DNA of 64,000 nt from Gammaproteobacteria bacterium (lineage in GTDB: Bacteria; Pseudomonadota; Gammaproteobacteria; CAJXQU01), in the NCBI GenBank assembly GCA_965238175.1, contig CBDEGZ010000003.1, positions 2,848,001-2,912,000 on the forward strand. The letters run 5' to 3'. The position numbers were made by a program, and so were the translations under genes. The notes beneath the pieces are model-generated. The model saw only the letters and a list, made by a program, of their open reading frames with translations, had not been told where the DNA came from and searched no databases. Every line of letters starts with the position of its first letter. Position 1 is the first letter of the stretch. Shown here in pieces: positions 17,750 through 29,606 of the stretch.

Positions 17750-18074
17750 AGCTTATGATTAGAAAATAAATAGTCAGAGCCTGAGGGATCCCATGAAATT
17801 GGTATAAATAATCAAGCATACAACGGCTCTCTCATGGGTTGTTATATGTGCTCAGAGGCTCTTGTCCAATCTTTCTCTTTGAGTTTTAACGTTCTATCTT
17901 TGAAACGCTCTCAATTTTCACCGAGGAAATATTTCCTAATTTATAATGTCGTCTTTTTTGATTGTAAAACGGGCTCTATGTAATTAACCTGATGTGATGG
18001 TCTCCTCCCCCTAACGGCATCTAGGTGCCATGATTGAACTGACATACACACAATCAAAAGAGGAGAAGACCAAA

Positions 18075-19088
18075 ATGAAGACTACAACAATCGGGTTAGA
18101 CATAGCAAAAAACGTATTTCATGCTGTCTGCTGTAATCAACAAGGGCGTATAATCAAAAAGAAAATGTTAAAGCGAGCGCAGGTACTCTCCTTTTTTCAA
18201 TCTCAACCTCCTTGTTTAGTCGCAATAGAATCTTGTGCAACGTCACAGTATTGGGCCCGAGCGATACAACAACAGGGACATCAGGTGAAATTACTACCAC
18301 CTCAGCATGTTAACGCATTTCTAATCGGCAATAAGAATGATTATAACGATGCCTTGGCCATCGCCGTTGCTGCGAAACAACCTCATTTAAAAAGTGTGGG
18401 CATTAAATCAGTTGAGCAACAAGACAACCAGGCACAACATAAAGCAAGAGACTTAGCGGTCAGACAAAGAACCGCATTATGTAACCAAATGAGAGCGCTT
18501 GTTGCAGAATATGGCATTAGCCTTCGTCCCGGCCTAAATACCCTACGTCAATCTATCCCGTTGCTATTAAGTGATGAGAACGAACGGTTGTCCGTTACTT
18601 TCAAAAGGATACTGCGCCAGCTAAAGGAACAATGGCAATCACTTGATGCCTGTATTGCGACATTTGACCAATTGATCATTCAATCGGCAAAAAACAATGC
18701 GATTTGCCAACGCTTACAAACTATTCCAGGGTTTGGGCCGATGGTCTCGAGCGCGTATTTTAATGAAGTGGGAAACGGCGCTCATTATCACAAAGGGCGC
18801 GATGTGTCCGCCTCATTAGGACTTGTTCCACGACAGTACAGTAGTGGTGGTAAAGAGGTGCTACTGGGGATCAGTAAACGCGGCAATAAATACCTTCGTT
18901 GTTTGTTAATTCTAGGCGCGAAGGCCGTGGTATCAAGAGCCAAAACGAAAGGCGATAAACTGAGTCAATGGATTAATCGTTTAGTTGAGACGCGGGGGCA
19001 TAATCGAGCGTGTGTGGCGTATGCCAACAAAATGGCAAGAATGGCCTGGGCTATAACGGTTTCTGGTGATGACTACTCACCGGCCTAA
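18075..19088 (+). CDS. IS110-family recombinase/transposase
   Basis: IGLDIAK, AIESC and KNDYNDA (DEDD); GLVPRQYSSGG and ISKRGN; AGGAG RBS before the 18075 ATG. Confidence 0.93.
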   Translation: MKTTTIGLDIAKNVFHAVCCNQQGRIIKKKMLKRAQVLSFFQSQPPCLVAIESCATSQYWARAIQQQGHQVKLLPPQHVNAFLIGNKNDYNDALAIAVAAKQPHLKSVGIKSVEQQDNQAQHKARDLAVRQRTALCNQMRALVAEYGISLRPGLNTLRQSIPLLLSDENERLSVTFKRILRQLKEQWQSLDACIATFDQLIIQSAKNNAICQRLQTIPGFGPMVSSAYFNEVGNGAHYHKGRDVSASLGLVPRQYSSGGKEVLLGISKRGNKYLRCLLILGAKAVVSRAKTKGDKLSQWINRLVETRGHNRACVAYANKMARMAWAITVSGDDYSPA

Positions 19089-19339: not shown

Positions 19340-20565
19340 TGTAGAAGTTTAGACCCAATCTGACACATCACTAAATCAAGCGGAGCGTAGCGACGCTTGA
19401 TTTAGTGAGAGTTACCCGCTTTGATGTAACTGCAACGTAAACATCAAAACACAAAGAGGTAACTCTCATGATTCATACTAATGACAAAGTTATAAAACAT
19501 AAAGTTGGTCTACTCAATCTCGCTGAAGAACTCGGCAATGTCTCAAAAGCCTGCAAGATGATGGGTTTGTCCAGAGATACATTTTATCGCTACAAAGAAG
19601 CGGCTGATGAAGGCGGTGTAGAAGCCTTGTTTGATCGTAATCGGCGTACCCCAAATCTTAAAAACAGAATCGACCCGGCTATTGAAACCGTTGTGCTCGA
19701 GTATGCACTGGAAGAGCCCGCACATGGTCAAACGCGCACCAGTAACGAGCTGCGCAAACGGGGAACATTTGTCTCACCCAGTGGCGTTCGTTGTATCTGG
19801 CTTCGTCATGGTCTTGCTTGCTTTAAAGATCGCCTGAAGGCATTGTCTGATAAGGTAGCTGGTGAAGGCTTGATCCTCACTGAGTCTCAAGTCGCGGCGA
19901 TGGAACGCAAAAAAGACGACGATGAGGCTTGTGGCGAGATAGAAACGGCACACCCTGGTTATCTTGGCTCGCAAGATACTTACTATGTCGGTACTTTCAA
20001 AGGCATTGGTCGGGTTTATCAACAAACGTTTGTTGATACTTACAGCAAGGTCGCTCACGCGAAACTGTACCCGACTAAAACACCGATTACGGCAGCTGAC
20101 ATGCTCAATGACCGCGTCCTCCCATTCTACGAAGAACAACGTTTGCCTATGTTGCGCATTTTGACAGATAGAGGGACGGAGTATTGTGGGCGAGCTGACC
20201 AGCATGATTATCAGCTTTATATGGCGTTGAACAATATCGAACACACCAAAACCAAGGTCAAATCACCTCAGACGAATGGTATTTGTGAGCGATTCCATAA
20301 GACGATCCTCAATGAGTTTTATCAAGTCGCTTTGCGTAAGAAAATTTACCAATCGATTGATGAACTGCAACTCGACCTTGACGAATGGTTGCTCAAATAC
20401 AATACTCAACGAACTCACCAAGGCAAAATGTGCTGCGGGAGGACGCCGATGGAAACACTCATCGACGGACAAGCTATCTGGAAGGAAAAGTTTTTGAACT
20501 AAACTTAACCTGACAGTCAGTTACAGAAAAAGGGGTAACTGTCAGATCAAGTCTGAATTTCTACA
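19340..20565 (+). mobile_element. IS481-family element copy 2 (transposase 19468-20502)
   Basis: Same termini and ORF; no TSD; joins the accessory island to a truncated backbone gene. Confidence 0.95.
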
Positions 20566-22389: not shown

Positions 22390-22505
22390 AAAAAGTAATA
22401 AGCCCCCACGAAGAGGGCTTTGGTCGCATAGAAGCGTTGCCTACGAAAAATTCATTTCATTGGTATGAAAAGACAATCAATAGACCTTAGTCGGTTACAC
22501 TAAGG
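22390..22505 (-). ncRNA. tracrRNA
   Basis: Anti-repeat 22481-22501 matches the repeat 20/21; minus-strand TATAAT at 22511-22516; 3' hairpins including a terminator at 22400-22420 with a U-tract. Confidence 0.85.
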
Positions 22506-22532
22506 CTAACATTATACATGAGGAGATCAGCA

Positions 22533-25500
22533 ATGAGCAAGAAAGTTCTCGGCCTTGATTTAGGCAGTAACTCAATAGGATGGGCTTTACTAGAGGAAGA
22601 AAATAGTAAGTTGAACAACATTATCGCTCTAGGAAGCAGAATCTTTACCAAAGCAGTTGAAGAAAAAACACCCACACCAAAAAATGTTAAAAGACGTGAT
22701 GCAAGGTTAGCCAGACGAGTGATTCAACGCCGCTCACACCGCAAGCAACGGATGCTGAATTATTTGGTTAAGCTTGACTTGTTACCCAGTGAAATACAAG
22801 GACACAGTCAACCCGAAATTATTTTAAACGATCTGGGCGACCCTTATTTATTACGTGCTAAAGCACTTGACCATCGTCTTGAGTCACATGAACTAGGACG
22901 GGTACTACTCCATCTGGTTCAGCGTCGTGGCTTTTTGAGCAATCGCAAAACATTATTAGGTGACATGGTTAATGATCCAGATGTTCTCGAAATTCTCACG
23001 GAATTGGAAGCTGACGACGATAACTCATCAGAAAAAGCAAAAGAAGAAACTGCATTCAAGAAAGATATTAGTGAGCTTAGAAATACTATTTCCGAAGAAG
23101 GTTATCGGACTCTAGGTGAATACTTAGCATCATTAAATAAACATGACTGTAAAAGAAATCGCAGCCGTGAAGGGGGGCATCTAAGAACAGATCGCCAAAT
23201 GTATCGCGAAGAACTGGATCTGATATGGAAAAAACAAAAGTTATCTCATTCGCTCTTATCAAATGCTATTAAAGAACAAATTGAGAAAATTATTTTCTAC
23301 CAGCGCCCGCTTAAATTACGATCTGACAGAATAGGGAAATGTTCTCTGGAACCCACAAGAAAACGTGCAAACATTGCTCGATTAGAAGTTCAAAGATTTC
23401 GTTATCTTCAAGATATTAACAACCTGACTTATTTCGATCCATGGGATGAAACAGAAAAAAACTTAAGCTCCGAACAAAAAGAAAAAATGGTTGACCTATT
23501 CGAAAGCCAACCCACTATAACATTTCCAAAAATAAGAAAAACGCTGGGTTTTGATAAAAAACATGAGTTTAATTGTAGAAGTTTAGACCCAATCTGACAC
23601 ATCACTAAATCAAGCGGAGCGTAGCGACGCTTGATTTAGTGAGAGTTACCCGCTTTGATGTAACTGCAACGTAAACATCAAAACACAAAGAGGTAACTCT
23701 CATGATTCATACTAATGACAAAGTTATAAAACATAAAGTTGGTCTACTCAATCTCGCTGAAGAACTCGGCAATGTCTCAAAAGCCTGCAAGATGATGGGT
23801 TTGTCCAGAGATACATTTTATCGCTACAAAGAAGCGGCTGATGAAGGCGGTGTAGAAGCCTTGTTTGATCGTAATCGGCGTACCCCAAATCTTAAAAACA
23901 GAATCGACCCGGCTATTGAAACCGTTGTGCTCGAGTATGCACTGGAAGAGCCCGCACATGGTCAAACGCGCACCAGTAACGAGCTGCGCAAACGGGGAAC
24001 ATTTGTCTCACCCAGTGGCGTTCGTTGTATCTGGCTTCGTCATGGTCTTGCTTGCTTTAAAGATCGCCTGAAGGCATTGTCTGATAAGGTAGCTGGTGAA
24101 GGCTTGATCCTCACTGAGTCTCAAGTCGCGGCGATGGAACGCAAGAAAGACGACGATGAGGCTTGTGGCGAGATAGAGACGGCACACCCTGGTTATCTTG
24201 GCTCGCAAGATACTTACTATGTCGGTACTTTCAAAGGCATTGGTCGGGTTTATCAACAAACGTTTGTTGATACTTACAGCAAGGTCGCTCACGCGAAACT
24301 GTACCCGACTAAAACACCGATTACGGCAGCTGACATGCTCAATGACCGCGTCCTCCCATTCTACGAACAACAACGTTTGCCTATGTTGCGCATTTTGACA
24401 GATAGAGGGACGGAGTATTGTGGGCGAGCTGACCAGCATGATTATCAGCTTTATATGGCGTTGAACAATATCGAACACACCAAAACCAAGGTCAAATCAC
24501 CTCAGACGAATGGTATTTGTGAGCGATTCCATAAGACGATCCTCAATGAGTTTTATCAAGTCGCTTTGCGTAAGAAAATTTACCAATCGATTGATGAACT
24601 GCAACTCGACCTTGACGAATGGTTGCTCAAATACAATACTCAACGAACTCACCAAGGCAAAATGTGCTGCGGGAGGACGCCGATGGAAACACTCATCGAC
24701 GGACAAGCTATCTGGAAGGAAAAGTTTTTGAACTAAACTTAACCTGACAGTCGGTTACAGAAAAAGGGGTAACTGTCAGATCAAGTCTGAATTTCTACAG
24801 TTTAATCTTGAAAATGGGAATAAAAAACTTAAGGGCAATATTACTGCTTGTGAATTGAAAAAAGTTATATCCGATTGGAATGATCTTGGTTCTGACTCTC
24901 AGTATAAACTTGTTGAAGATCTTCTAACTATTCAGAAGAAATCCACTCTGAAAAAACGACTTTTAGATCACTGGGGTTTTGATCCAAAAATTGCTGTAGA
25001 ACTTTGTTTACTTGAGTTTGAACCTGGCCACAGTAGCCACTCAATTAAAGCCATCAATAAACTTCTTCCTTTCCTTAAGGAAGGGGAAATCTATTCCAAT
25101 GCCAGAATCAAAGCAGGATATGGTTATGAAATAAAAGAGATAGATCTTATGGAGCGTCTGGGCATACCTCCTGAAATAGCCAATCCTATTGTTCAAAAAG
25201 GGCTGCACGAGCTTCGTCGATTGGTTAATGCCATTATTGCCGAATATGGCAGACCAGATGCTATTCGTATTGAAATGGCCAGAGATCTGGAAATGAATGC
25301 CAAACGCTATAAAGACTTTCTCAAACAACAAAAGACTAACACTCAAGCTAATGATAAAGCCACTGAGAAGTTTCAAGAAATGGGACGGAAATCTCCACAT
25401 CTCAAACTTTCAAAATACCCCAGCCATTCTGACAAAATAAAGTATCGGTTATGGAAAGATCAAGATCAGCGCTGTGCTTATAGTGGTAATTCCATTGATC

Positions 25501-26864
25501 TGGCAACGCTGTTTAGTGCTGAAATAGATATTGATCATATTCTTCCCTATAGCCAATCACTTGATGATTCATACATGAATAAAGTTGTTTGTTATACAGG
25601 AGAAAATCGCTACAAAGGCCAACGTACTCCTATAGATGCCTTCGGCGGAAATGAAGAAAAGTGGGAACAAATTTTTCAACGAATTAATCGATGGGATAAA
25701 AGATTCAAAAGTAAAAAAGCACGTTTTTTTCAAACAGCAGCAGATCTTCAACAACGTGATTTCATCAGTAGCCAACTCAATGATACTCGCTACATGAGTC
25801 GAGTTGCGCAAGACTATTTAAAACAACTAGGTGCAGACATTAGTGTGAGTAAAGGAATAACAACCTCATGGTTGAGACATCAATGGGGATTAAATAACCT
25901 CATAGGAGAAACCAATAAAAAAGACCGAAACGATCATCGTCATCATGCAATTGATGCTGTAGTTATTGCCTGTGTTGACAGAAGCTTCTATCAGAAGTTA
26001 ATAAAAGAAGCCAAAGATTTGGAGCGAACACATTCATCATTGCACATGAAAGATCTCCATTTTGATCCTCCATGGCCACATCTGCGAGATGAACTAAATC
26101 AAAAGCTAAGCAATGTCATCATTTCTCATGCACCACAACGTAAACTTAGTGGTGCTTTACATGAAGAAACGGGCGTCGGATTTATCGAGTCAAAAGGCGC
26201 TGTCTATCGGGCAAATCTGAATAGTGATTTTAAAGAAAAACAGATTGATAAAATTATAGATGATGAAGTCAGGGAAATTATACGAAACCATTTAGGTAAA
26301 TATAACAATAATCCCAAGGAAGCTTTTGCTGAAAGGCAACCTGTTTTACATAAAGATGGTAAAACACCGATCAAACGGGTACGCATTTTGCAATCTAAAA
26401 CTACACGAGAAAAACTTGATGAAACAAAATTTGGTGTAAAAAACAAAGACGGCAAAGTTTTTAAATGGCTTGCTTATGGAAATTTGCACCATGTCGAAAT
26501 TATCAAGAATAAAAAGACTGGAAAATATAAGGGTGAATTTGTAACAACAATGGAAGCCCATCACAGAGCAAAAGGAATCGGTATGCAAAAGCAAAAAGTA
26601 ATCAAAACTGATCATGGCAGTGATTATGAGTTCTTAATGGCCTTGCATATTAATGACCTGGTAAGTGTAGAAAAGGATAGCGAACAGATTTTTTATCGAA
26701 TTCAAAAATTAGATTCAGGTTCAAATAGAATGGTTTTGAGGTTACATACTGCATCAACACTTGGTAATAAAGATGAAGAGATATATGTTTCAATTAATGA
26801 AAAGTCATTTACGGATTGGAATTTAAAAAAACTACAGATAAATGTCATAGGAAAGATTTTCTAG
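22533..26864 (+). pseudogene. cas9: Type II-C Cas9 interrupted by IS481 (1032 aa when rejoined)
   Basis: RuvC-I LGLDLG, Arg-rich bridge helix, RIEMARD, HNH DIDHILP, HHAIDA; halves rejoin in frame as HEFNLENGNKKLKGN. Confidence 0.96.
23574..24799 (+). mobile_element. IS481-family element copy 3 (transposase 23702-24736)
   Basis: 7-bp TSD GTTTAAT at 23567-23573 and 24800-24806. Confidence 0.96.
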
Positions 26865-27766
26865 TGATCAAACGCATTATCGACATCAGCGAACAAGCCT
26901 ATATTCATATGAAACACAGGCAGCTTCTGATCGATAAAGAAGGTGAAACTATCGGGCAGATCCCGATAGAAGATTTGGGTGTTCTAATTTTGCAACACAC
27001 TGCAATAGTCATAACCCAGGCAGTGATCATCGCTTGTCAGGAAAATAATGTAGTACTAGTTTTTTGTGACTCTCGACATCTGCCCTATTCTGTAGTCTTG
27101 CCTATTAGTGAGGGACATACACTACATACAAAAGTACTACGACAACAACTAACCGTAACCCTGCCAACAAAAAAACGTTTATGGCAGCAAATTGTAAAAT
27201 CCAAGATAAAAGAACAAGCCAACACTCTGAGTCTAGCGAGTAAAGATAATAAAGTATTATTACGACTGACAGAAAAAGTAAAAACTGGCGATTCAGAGAA
27301 TCATGAAGCCCAGGCGGCTAAAGTATATTGGCGGCTATTGTTTGGAGATGAGTTTCGACGCAATGTGGATGCTGAGGGACTAAATAGCGTATTAAATTAC
27401 GGCTATGCAATTATGCGTGCAATGGTAGCAAGGGCATTGGTTGGCAGTGGCTTACACCCTGCGATTGGGTTGCATCATCGCAATCAGTACAATGGTCTTT
27501 GTCTTGCTGATGACATTATGGAGCCGTTCAGGCCTTGGGTTGACCTGGCTGTTTACAAGCTATTTGTAGATAACAAACAACTGGAGATCAATACTGAAAT
27601 AAAGCAAGCACTGTTAGGCATGTTGAGTGAAAAAGTGATCTGGAAAGGGGAAAGCCTGCCTTTGATGGTCGCTTGTCATTCTTTGACTGCCGATCTGAAA
27701 AGAGCTTATCAAAACTCAAAAGAAAAACTTTGTTTTCCTCAATTGGAAAACAGGATCGCAGCTTGA
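26864..27766 (+). CDS. cas1: Type II Cas1
   Basis: GTG start overlaps the cas9 stop; IPIEDL, NHEAQAA, LNYGYAIMR, GLHH, LADDIMEPFRP. Confidence 0.95.
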   Translation: MIKRIIDISEQAYIHMKHRQLLIDKEGETIGQIPIEDLGVLILQHTAIVITQAVIIACQENNVVLVFCDSRHLPYSVVLPISEGHTLHTKVLRQQLTVTLPTKKRLWQQIVKSKIKEQANTLSLASKDNKVLLRLTEKVKTGDSENHEAQAAKVYWRLLFGDEFRRNVDAEGLNSVLNYGYAIMRAMVARALVGSGLHPAIGLHHRNQYNGLCLADDIMEPFRPWVDLAVYKLFVDNKQLEINTEIKQALLGMLSEKVIWKGESLPLMVACHSLTADLKRAYQNSKEKLCFPQLENRIAA

Positions 27767-28090
27767 ACTTTGGTGGACTGAATACCATGTGGGTTACCGT
27801 ACTTTTTGATCTCCCCACCGACACAAAAGAAGCACGAAAACAATACACAATTTCGGAAATTTTTACTTGATGATGGCTTCACCATGATGCAATACTCAGT
27901 CTATATTCGACATAGCGCCAGCGAAGAGAATGCACAGGTTCATATCAAGCGTGTAAAAGCAGCATTGCCTGCTGATGGTGAGGTTCGAATCTTCAAAATT
28001 ACCGATAAACAGTTTGGAAAAATAGAAGTGTTCTATGGAAAAAGACAGCAAACTATCGAAGAAACCCCGAAACAACTCCTGTTTTTCTGA
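27763..28090 (+). pseudogene. cas2: Cas2, frameshifted
   Basis: MWVTVLFDLPT...RKQYT and QFRKFLLDDGFTMMQYSVY lie in different frames; break at 27841-27851. Confidence 0.9.
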
Positions 28091-28139
28091 ACAAAGAAAC
28101 AGGAGTTTCTCTTTTGGATCAATCAATTACTTGCATGGT

Positions 28140-29606
28140 AGTGTAACCGACTAAGGTGTAGAAGTTTAGACCCAATCTGACACATCACTAAATCAAGCGG
28201 AGCGTAGCGACGCTTGATTTAGTGAGAGTTACCCGCTTTGATGTAACTGCAACGTAAACATCAAAACACAAAGAGGTAACTCTCATGATTCATACTAATG
28301 ACAAAGTTATAAAACATAAAGTTGGTCTACTCAATCTCGCTGAAGAACTCGGCAATGTCTCAAAAGCCTGCAAGATGATGGGTTTGTCCAGAGATACATT
28401 TTATCGCTACAAAGAAGCGGCTGATGAAGGCGGTGTAGAAGCCTTGTTTGATCGTAATCGGCGTACCCCAAATCTTAAAAACAGAATCGACCCGGCTATT
28501 GAAACCGTTGTGCTCGAGTATGCACTGGAAGAGCCCGCACATGGTCAAACGCGCACCAGTAACGAGCTGCGCAAACGGGGAACATTTGTCTCACCCAGTG
28601 GCGTTCGTTGTATCTGGCTTCGTCATGGTCTTGCTTGCTTTAAAGATCGCCTGAAGGCATTGTCTGATAAGGTAGCTGGTGAAGGCTTGATCCTCACTGA
28701 GTCTCAAGTCGCGGCGATGGAACGCAAGAAAGACGACGATGAGGCTTGTGGCGAGATAGAGACGGCACACCCTGGTTATCTTGGCTCGCAAGATACTTAC
28801 TATGTCGGTACTTTCAAAGGCATTGGTCGGGTTTATCAACAAACGTTTGTTGATACTTACAGCAAGGTCGCTCACGCGAAACTGTACCCGACTAAAACAC
28901 CGATTACGGCAGCTGACATGCTCAATGACCGCGTCCTCCCATTCTACGAAGAACAACGTTTGCCTATGTTGCGCATTTTGACAGATAGAGGGACGGAGTA
29001 TTGTGGGCGAGCTGACCAGCATGATTATCAGCTTTATATGGCGTTGAACAATATCGAACACACCAAAACCAAGGTCAAATCACCTCAGACGAATGGTATT
29101 TGTGAGCGATTCCATAAGACGATCCTCAATGAGTTTTATCAAGTCGCTTTGCGTAAGAAAATTTACCAATCGATTGATGAACTGCAACTCGACCTTGACG
29201 AATGGTTGCTCAAATACAATACTCAACGAACTCACCAAGGCAAAATGTGCTGCGGGAGGACGCCGATGGAAACACTCATCGACGGACAAGCTATCTGGAA
29301 GGAAAAGTTTTTGAACTAAACTTAACCTGACAGTCAGTTACAGAAAAAGGGGTAACTGTCAGATCAAGTCTGAATTTCTACAACTAAGGCCTACATGCAA
29401 TTCACAACTGAATCCCTCTTCTAACTGACCATCTGGAAAGTGTAACCGACTAAGGCCTACATGCAATTCACAACATCTCATGCTGCACATCGACAACCAT
29501 ATTCAGTGTAACCGACTAAGGCCTACATGCAATTCACAACCCTTCAAGGTGTAGTTGAACCGGGTATTCTAGTGTAACCGACTAAGGCCTACATGCAGTT
29601 CACTAC
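28140..29606 (-). CRISPR. CRISPR array: four 36-bp repeats, three 30-bp spacers; first repeat split by IS481
   Basis: Repeat AGTGTAACCGACTAAGGCCTACATGCAATTCACAAC at 28140-28156+29390-29408, 29439-29474, 29505-29540 and degenerate 29571-29606; strand inferred from the anti-repeat and the GTTG start. Confidence 0.95.
28157..29382 (+). mobile_element. IS481-family element copy 4 (transposase 28285-29319)
   Basis: 7-bp TSD ACTAAGG inside the CRISPR repeat. Confidence 0.96.

Follow-up and report, generated by a model that had tools for sequence, protein, structure and literature searches.

What put the CRISPR-Cas9 locus at 22392-29606 of the window out of action, and why was it lost? The window is the whole 64,000-nt stretch of DNA that was analyzed. 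It comes from a gammaproteobacterial genome (G000) of 3.35 Mb in 3 contigs, whose order was represented by 7 genomes of one genus; coordinates are positions in the window unless prefixed by another contig or locus label. A housekeeping protein of this genome has its best named match, at 96%, in a gammaproteobacterial metagenome-assembled genome (MAG), followed by MAGs of Methylophaga, Cycloclasticus and Thiotrichaceae at no more than 84%, which marks the source as an uncultured gammaproteobacterium from the environment. The locus is a type II-C CRISPR-Cas9 system, because its gene set is cas9, cas1 and cas2 alone with their neighbors, which is how the account of the subtype in PMC5965381 defines it. 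A Cas9 with RuvC and HNH domains, cas1 and cas2 as its only companions (neither csn2 nor cas4 is present), and a trans-activating CRISPR RNA (tracrRNA) with an anti-repeat were all found. As to interference and adaptation, cas9 is split by an insertion sequence (IS), cas2 is frameshifted, and the first repeat of the array is split by a second IS copy. A connection of this knockout with a resident Mu-like prophage, which one of the three spacers matches, is the explanation toward which we lean.

The lesion in cas9 is the insertion of an IS481-family element. The 5′ part of the gene (22533-23573, plus strand; codons 1-347, with RuvC-I and the start of the helical lobe) begins at an ATG (22533) behind a GAGGAG ribosome-binding site (22520-25), and is followed by IS copy A (23574-24799, plus strand; transposase 23702-24736), which interrupts Cas9 after residue 347 and is flanked by the duplication GTTTAAT at 23567-73 and 24800-06. 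The 3′ part (24807-26864, plus strand) encodes RuvC-II, HNH, RuvC-III and the C-terminal domains and ends in a TAG stop (26862-64). Because Cas9 is truncated after residue 347, the sequence shows that interference is dead. When the two parts are joined with one copy of the duplication removed, the resulting 3099 nt form an open frame of 1032 amino acids, which aligns over its full length with intact orthologues of 1022 and 1042 amino acids and retains the motifs GLDLG, IEMAR, DIDH and HHAIDA (RuvC-I, RuvC-II, HNH and RuvC-III). The 5′ part matches positions 2-342 of TIGR01865 (E = 6e-77) and the 3′ part positions 352-1070 (E = 4e-130), the latter also matching Pfam HNH_4 and RuvC_III. An earlier note on this DNA, made from the letters alone, had proposed both the insertion with its duplication and the rejoined frame with intact motifs, and both proposals stand.

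Apart from the IS insertion, no further stop or frameshift was found in the rejoined cas9. At the 343 columns with at least 95% conservation, the rejoined Cas9 deviates at 7, compared with a median of 5 (range 0-14) among 110 intact homologues, 29 of which have 7 or more such deviations. Because these deviations fall within the spread of the homologues, the alignment gives no sign of decay in cas9 beyond the three lesions of the locus. The recent loss claimed in the earlier note is thus supported by sequence comparison, since cas9 is without further lesions, its conserved columns are normal, and the two IS insertions hardly differ from the other copies of the element.

The adaptation genes were affected unequally. 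The cas1 gene (26864-27766, plus strand), whose GTG start overlaps the cas9 stop, is intact and encodes 300 amino acids; it matches TIGR03639 (cas1_NMENI) with 297 bits, and the same length and GTG start are found in two relatives. It is the single cas1 in the whole genome, and its product is 92% identical to that of G003 and 83% identical to that of G006, two other genomes of the order. The cas2 gene (27763-28090, plus strand) is short of 2 bases between 27848 and 27849 in a DNA alignment with the orthologues of G006, G003 and Methylovulum; its first frame stops at 27868-70, and the Pfam and TIGR Cas2 matches fall on the second frame. The frameshift had been attributed to the loss of one CA. 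The 2-bp deletion is borne out by all three orthologues, and a CA slipped out of an AC run is plausible because G003 reads TACACAA at this site; which dinucleotide was lost cannot be fixed from the alignment.

The array (four 36-nt repeats and three 30-nt spacers) starts 49 nt after the cas2 stop with repeat 1 (28140-29408, minus strand), which is divided by IS copy B (28157-29382; transposase 28285-29319) into pieces of 17 nt (28140-56) and 19 nt (29390-29408). The duplication ACTAAGG at 28150-56 and 29383-89 is as first described. The rest of the array (29409-29606, minus strand as deduced from the strand of the tracrRNA) consists of spacer 1 (29409-38), repeat 2 (29439-74), spacer 2 (29475-504), repeat 3 (29505-40), spacer 3 (29541-70) and repeat 4 (29571-606), the last with 2 changes. 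We take the cas2-proximal repeat to be the site of spacer uptake, because the degenerate repeat sits at the far end, and infer that the split repeat 1 and the cas2 frameshift jointly ended uptake. Given the minus-strand reading of the array, the first 26 nt of the split repeat would stay joined to spacer 1.

IS copies are difficult to place in assemblies, and one could suppose that the lesions are assembly artefacts. An independently built public contig of 3407 bp covers 24775-28181 with 0 differences, including the cas2 deletion, reaching from the last bases of copy A into the first bases of copy B. Contigs from a second run of the same sample agree across the cas2 site, with no insertion or deletion listed. 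The cas2 deletion, for which a check of the reads had been suggested, is thereby present in contigs of two runs, and the companion check for IS-free alleles found none in the contigs of that sample. Contig joints listed between 24799-24806 and 28157 rest on sides of just 22-27 letters, which derive from other IS copies. These two runs belong to one sample, possibly the source sample of the assembly; the contigs argue against assembly error and are silent on other alleles. Together with the clean 7-bp duplications at both insertions, they make an artefact so improbable as to be nearly negligible. The same holds for the related idea that the split Cas9 works as two pieces: translation of the 3′ part could begin at a TTG (24855), but this part is without an evident ribosome-binding site or promoter, and the break lies inside the helical lobe.

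The tracrRNA gene (22392-22502, minus strand) bears on how the array is read. Its 5′ anti-repeat (22502-22481), a 21-22-nt match to the repeat that does not by itself reveal the strand, is followed by two small hairpins, a terminator hairpin (22421-22405) and a U run. Immediately to the right of the anti-repeat on the minus strand lies a −10-like box, TGTATAAT (22511-22518), a predicted tracrRNA promoter judged from its sequence, which is kept in Methylovulum and reads TATACT in G006. A block conserved with G006 and Methylovulum miyakonense sits to the left of the anti-repeat and ends in a G+C-rich hairpin with a variable loop, and a T run follows this hairpin on the minus strand only. Related loci, 80 in number, were gathered by a scan with the N-terminal third of Cas9. 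Among 82 loci (these 80 with L006 and L001, of which L001 is duplicated by L024), 49 carry, downstream of cas2, an array whose 36-nt repeats belong to the same family. Of 46 rows compared, 44 have an anti-repeat upstream of cas9 that departs from the first 14 bases of the repeat at no more than 2 positions, with the same RNA body after it on the minus strand; the two failing rows are one short contig and the window, whose IS insertion lengthens the distance to be searched.

Covariation in the RNA body was examined in an alignment of 42 sequences (the window and 41 loci), leaving out L001 (28-nt insertion), L083 and L086 (too divergent), L085 (no upstream DNA) and L024 (duplicate). The proposed structure of two small hairpins and a terminator is paired in 93.6% of cells, with compensatory changes at 9 of its 18 pairs. 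These values were not attained in any of 500 shuffles, and sliding the partners by 1-3 columns left 43-58% paired. The covariation thus supports a tracrRNA read from the minus strand, antisense to cas9-cas1-cas2, and therefore CRISPR RNAs (crRNAs) read from the minus strand too; the strand, ends and fold of the tracrRNA draw support from all 42 sequences. This reading of both RNAs goes beyond the earlier note, whose statement that cas1, tracrRNA and repeats are preserved holds, with cas1 whole, the anti-repeat present and four repeats in place, the first split and the last with its two changes. A plus-strand tracrRNA, prompted by an AAGGCT that follows the anti-repeat, was considered and rejected, as it is on the minus strand that the −10 box, the terminator and the conserved body lie and covary.

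Co-folding pairs the repeat start (GUUGUGAA) with a conserved tracrRNA segment, UUUUCAUACC, and the 5′ end of the tracrRNA with the last 21 repeat bases. The predicted repeat:anti-repeat duplex covers nearly the whole repeat, with an internal loop, and the modeled arrangement is the usual topology. In the RNA sense, a −10-like hexamer closes every repeat (TACACT here, TACAAT or TATACT in relatives), which would fit the repeat-embedded promoters of type II-C that PMC5965381 describes for Neisseria and Campylobacter. RNAalifold applied to the same alignment also pairs columns 17-21 and columns 63-67 (about 22485-22481 and 22443-22439 of the window, minus strand), joining GGYCUA of the anti-repeat to a downstream UAGGC of the tracrRNA that copies the corresponding piece of the repeat; four sequences switch A-U to G-C together. 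Such a pairing may reflect either the free tracrRNA folding on itself or contact among three strands within the complex. The Methylovulum miyakonense tracrRNA (L001:6822-6939, minus strand) contains a 28-nt insertion with a second copy of the CAUACCAAUG motif and a stretch like the 5′ half of a repeat.

Self-targeting had been named as one possible reason for the loss of immunity. Spacer 3 matches C3:2266840-2266869 of the same genome at 29 of 30 bases, more than the identity of at least 90% to the same genome that PMC7708048 uses to call self-targeting. Spacers 1 and 2 share at most 15 matching bases with any other place in the genome. The matched site lies in the last gene of a Mu-like prophage, which encodes 458 amino acids with no Pfam family and was found in 1 of the 7 genomes; the sole other match to it in this genome is the spacer itself. 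Read as crRNA, the guide runs in the same direction as the coding strand of the target gene, with TGAAACAG as the 3′ flank. The mismatch is the sixth base from this flank, the side of the protospacer-adjacent motif (PAM); it is a synonymous third-position change (CTC vs CTT) and would form an rU:dG wobble. The suggested search of the spacers against the host genome thus yielded spacer 3 only, and the search of phage and plasmid records nothing significant. Self-targeting therefore gains a concrete resident target, and its causal role in the loss is conjectural.

The prophage was assigned to the Mu type on a phrog_310 transposase, a phrog_296 transposition protein, a Gam-like protein, a Mu F-like protein and a FluMu_N domain. 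It encodes MuA- and MuB-like transposition proteins, Gam, Kil-like and late-activator proteins, as well as lysis, terminase, portal, Mu F-like minor head, protease, major head, tail and tape-measure proteins. One end adjoins a tRNA-Leu gene. A tRNA-Met gene directly follows the major head gene (L008:994-1068), and the structural genes include one for a 1079-amino-acid protein with cadherin-like and Big_9 domains (L008:1768-5007).

Because a working Cas9 with guide 3 would attack the chromosome, we consider it somewhat probable that the knockout was tied to incompatibility with this prophage. A Cas9 loaded with the spacer-3 guide would cut at the last prophage gene, and either loss of Cas9 would have let the phage settle, or a lysogen with a near-match would have selected for the loss of Cas9; an ongoing IS burst would have supplied the mutations. 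Spacer 3 is probably the oldest spacer, and the system was thus probably active after acquiring it. This order favors a phage that established itself only once Cas9 was gone, or the settling of an escape variant, with residual targeting then favoring the knockout. The probable age of spacer 3 also argues against acquisition of a self-spacer from an already resident prophage. The three lesions in an otherwise intact locus, the prophage match of spacer 3, the sole cas1, the avoidance of genes by the IS elsewhere in the genome, and the loss of cas9 in G003 all speak for incompatibility with the prophage.

According to PMC7708048 (Nobrega et al. 2020), more than half of self-targeting spacers are directed at prophages, and mutation of cas genes is among the ways of escape. 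Spacers that target resident prophages, and escape from them by cas-gene mutation, target mutation or anti-CRISPRs, are thus well described. The locus resembles the cases presented there in that a spacer at least 90% identical to a resident prophage stands beside a non-functional cas set. It differs in that deterioration is threefold and IS-driven here, whereas genetic deterioration of cas was rare in that survey, whose PAM analysis did not cover type II-C. Several searches were made for protospacers of this Cas9 and its relatives. The array gave 14 matches in phage records, all with E of at least 2, and 16 in plasmid records, of which the 15 listed have E = 8. The G006 array, compared with the 7 genomes of the order, gave nothing but repeat and anti-repeat matches, plus two at E > 0.2; 663 spacers from 48 arrays of the clade gave 64 rows against this genome and the collected loci, all within-array duplicates or same-record copies; and the prophage target protein had 12 pattern matches in viral contigs, none of them a relative. 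Self-targeting spacers against prophages have reportedly been discussed by Wimmer and Beisel (2020) as being resolved by loss of cas function.

Several observations weigh against a causal link with the prophage. Because no protospacers of the clade were found in the phage, plasmid, viral, sister-genome and clade-spacer searches, no PAM can be inferred, and cleavage at the prophage site with its 3′ flank is only putative. Spacer 3 adjoins the degenerate repeat, probably the oldest; the other two spacers were thus probably acquired later, which speaks against an autoimmunity that was lethal at once, and the mismatch in the seed region might already protect the prophage. Three of the 12 minor-form copies of the IS (see below) lie within 10 kb here, among 57 active-looking copies, and local hopping without selection could account for two insertions. 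The contigs that agree with the lesions come from one sample, possibly the assembly's own, and give no independent view of alleles.

The behavior of the IS element is central to the alternative of neutral decay, in which a dispensable locus was hit during a genome-wide IS burst under relaxed selection, and the prophage match is a bystander: spacer 3 would date from an old encounter with a related phage, and the seed mismatch or a wrong PAM would already have let the target escape. The element is 1226 bp long and bounded by imperfect inverted repeats (its ends read TGTAGAAGTTTAGACC... and ...GTCTGAATTTCTACA), and its transposase scores 278.4 bits against NCBIfam IS481 NF033577 (cut-off 224). 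Like other members of the IS481 family, it thus combines a DDE transposase above the cut-off with imperfect inverted repeats and short target duplications; the 7-bp duplication and the 57 copies describe the element of this genome only. Copies A and B differ at 2 of 1226 positions. A BLAST search of the genome gave 62 matches, 57 of them full copies at 99.1-100% identity, 5 within the window. All 57 have an open 344-codon transposase frame, and only 16 sites vary among them. Two forms can be told apart, a major one with 45 copies and a minor one with 12; the minor form includes both copies in the CRISPR locus and a third that lies 2 kb upstream of the tracrRNA. The flanks of copies A and B are typical of the element, because 40 of the 57 full copies carry a 7-8-bp target duplication. 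The other 17 lack one, and several of these have flanks identical to those of other copies, a pattern that points to copies having recombined with each other or landed in another repeat.

Neutral decay draws on the uniformity of these copies, on the recombination to which the 17 duplication-less ones point, and on the crowding of five full copies in the window, with three minor-form members within 10 kb. Furthermore, 7 other open reading frames (ORFs) of at least 150 amino acids are also interrupted, and cas9 is lost in G003 too and has no match in 3 of the 6 other genomes of the order. Under uniform insertion, however, only few of the insertions would be expected outside genes. Among the 39 copies with a 7-bp duplication, only 8 break a reconstructable ORF of at least 150 amino acids, compared with 82% of 1000 random positions, so that insertions elsewhere avoid genes; cas9 is the longest ORF broken by the IS. 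Two insertions in the 4765-bp locus have P = 0.003 under uniform insertion, a value that takes no account of target preference, local hopping or the purging of harmful insertions and is suggestive only. Three independent lesions within one 4.8-kb locus, and a 29/30 match to a prophage gene unique among 7 genomes, which would be an odd coincidence for a three-spacer array, also stand against neutral decay. We regard it as possible, on the doubtful side.

The prophage could also have acted through an inhibitor: an anti-Cas9 gene carried by it would first have made the locus useless, and decay would have followed. Three orphan small ORFs lie between its Mu G-like and protease genes (L009:17454-18135, i.e., G000:C3:2247454-2248135), encoding 93 (acidic), 81 and 55 (basic) amino acids. 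They match no Pfam or PHROGs family and are candidate anti-defense genes. In Pseudomonas Mu-like phages, anti-CRISPR genes occupy this position, and a Lar-like anti-restriction gene is found elsewhere in the prophage. PMC7708048 further reports an enrichment of anti-CRISPRs among genomes that have self-targeting spacers. On the other hand, no likeness to a known anti-CRISPR was found, none of the scanned prophage ORFs matched an anti-CRISPR-labeled PHROG, an Atlas look-up of the 93-amino-acid ORF gave no usable match, and inhibition by prophage ORFs is purely putative. An inhibitor that came first is therefore very unlikely. A broader version, in which a conflict between Cas9 and the Mu-like phage was resolved and the prophage perhaps carries a new anti-Cas9 locus in the three orphan ORFs, is also unlikely, if slightly less so. 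If it were true, the spacer-3 protospacer and its flank would give the PAM of the whole Cas9 clade, and the locus would hold a pair of enzyme and natural inhibitor.

Comparison with relatives showed that the loss is not confined to this genome. G003 has a syntenic locus (L007:8378-10198) with flanking genes 77-91% identical, in which cas9 is deleted to its last ~113 codons with one stop and the tracrRNA is gone, while cas1, cas2 and four repeats look intact. Because this syntenic locus also lost cas9, and did so by deletion, cas9 was lost at this site at least twice. G006 has an intact locus with different flanks, the Cas9 of G004 is unrelated (30% identity), and a search with this Cas9 came up empty in the other three genomes of the order. 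The Cas9 is 67.5% identical to that of Methylovulum and 65.2% to that of its own genus (G006), though Cas1 is 83-92% identical within the genus. This discrepancy suggests an exchange of cas9 or very fast divergence.

The earlier note had described a compact Cas9 with its own repeat/tracr pair. The pair is real; the length of 1032 amino acids is ordinary for type II-C, and the Cas9 is a member of a large clade already annotated in public records. In a large protein collection, identity reaches 70% for the best non-self match and lies at 60-70% for the best 120 listed, most of which have a length of ~1030 amino acids; Methylobacter, Methylomonas, Methylomicrobium, Nitrospiria and Desulfobulbaceae are named among the matches listed. 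The clade occurs in Methylococcales, Thiotrichales, Binatia, Nitrospiria and sponge symbionts (e.g., Methylovulum miyakonense HT12, L001; Candidatus Methylobacter favarea, P0008). Its members share with this locus the gene order, the tracrRNA and the repeat family (AGTGTAAC...ATCACAAC, plus strand) at 60-70% full-length Cas9 identity, and differ from it in that the cas9 copy here is interrupted. A literature search on type II-C Cas9 and Methylococcales returned no study of the ~1030-amino-acid clade among its 15 best matches, which is a weak negative.

The nearest solved structures are Cas9 chains of 1082-1095 amino acids (E = 4e-69 to 6e-50), which align over the central 380 residues only and which we take to be the Geobacillus and Neisseria II-C enzymes. 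As in the II-C systems of Neisseria meningitidis and Campylobacter jejuni, the operon holds cas9, cas1 and cas2 only, with a tracrRNA, and the array is antisense to the cas genes; the Neisseria locus also has 36-nt repeats and 30-nt spacers, as here. Unlike those systems, this one is distant in sequence, its tracrRNA gene lies directly upstream of and divergent from cas9, its predicted duplex extends over nearly the whole repeat, and it is broken. With a visible mutational agent in the bursting IS and a plausible reason in the spacer-matched phage, the locus is a clean natural example of the loss of CRISPR immunity, a tidy example rather than a new principle, and leaves the knowledge of CRISPR biology unchanged. 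It also supplies the parts with which one more II-C Cas9 could be tested, i.e., the protein halves, the repeat, the tracrRNA and one natural protospacer with its flank.

The locus is flanked by a glycosyltransferase gene, a DUF2288 gene, a gene for a helix-turn-helix protein and DsrC/DsrH-like genes. A search of Rfam gave only sub-threshold psRNA2 and L20-leader matches at IS ends, the best at 30.6 bits compared with a gathering score of 65. The third minor-form IS copy (19340-20565) is without a target duplication, and abuts and apparently truncates a QTMAN_N-type glycosyltransferase gene, which encodes 292 amino acids here compared with a 369-amino-acid ORF in G003. An IS110-family transposase gene (18030-19088) lies just ahead of this copy, so that the stretch gathers mobile elements.

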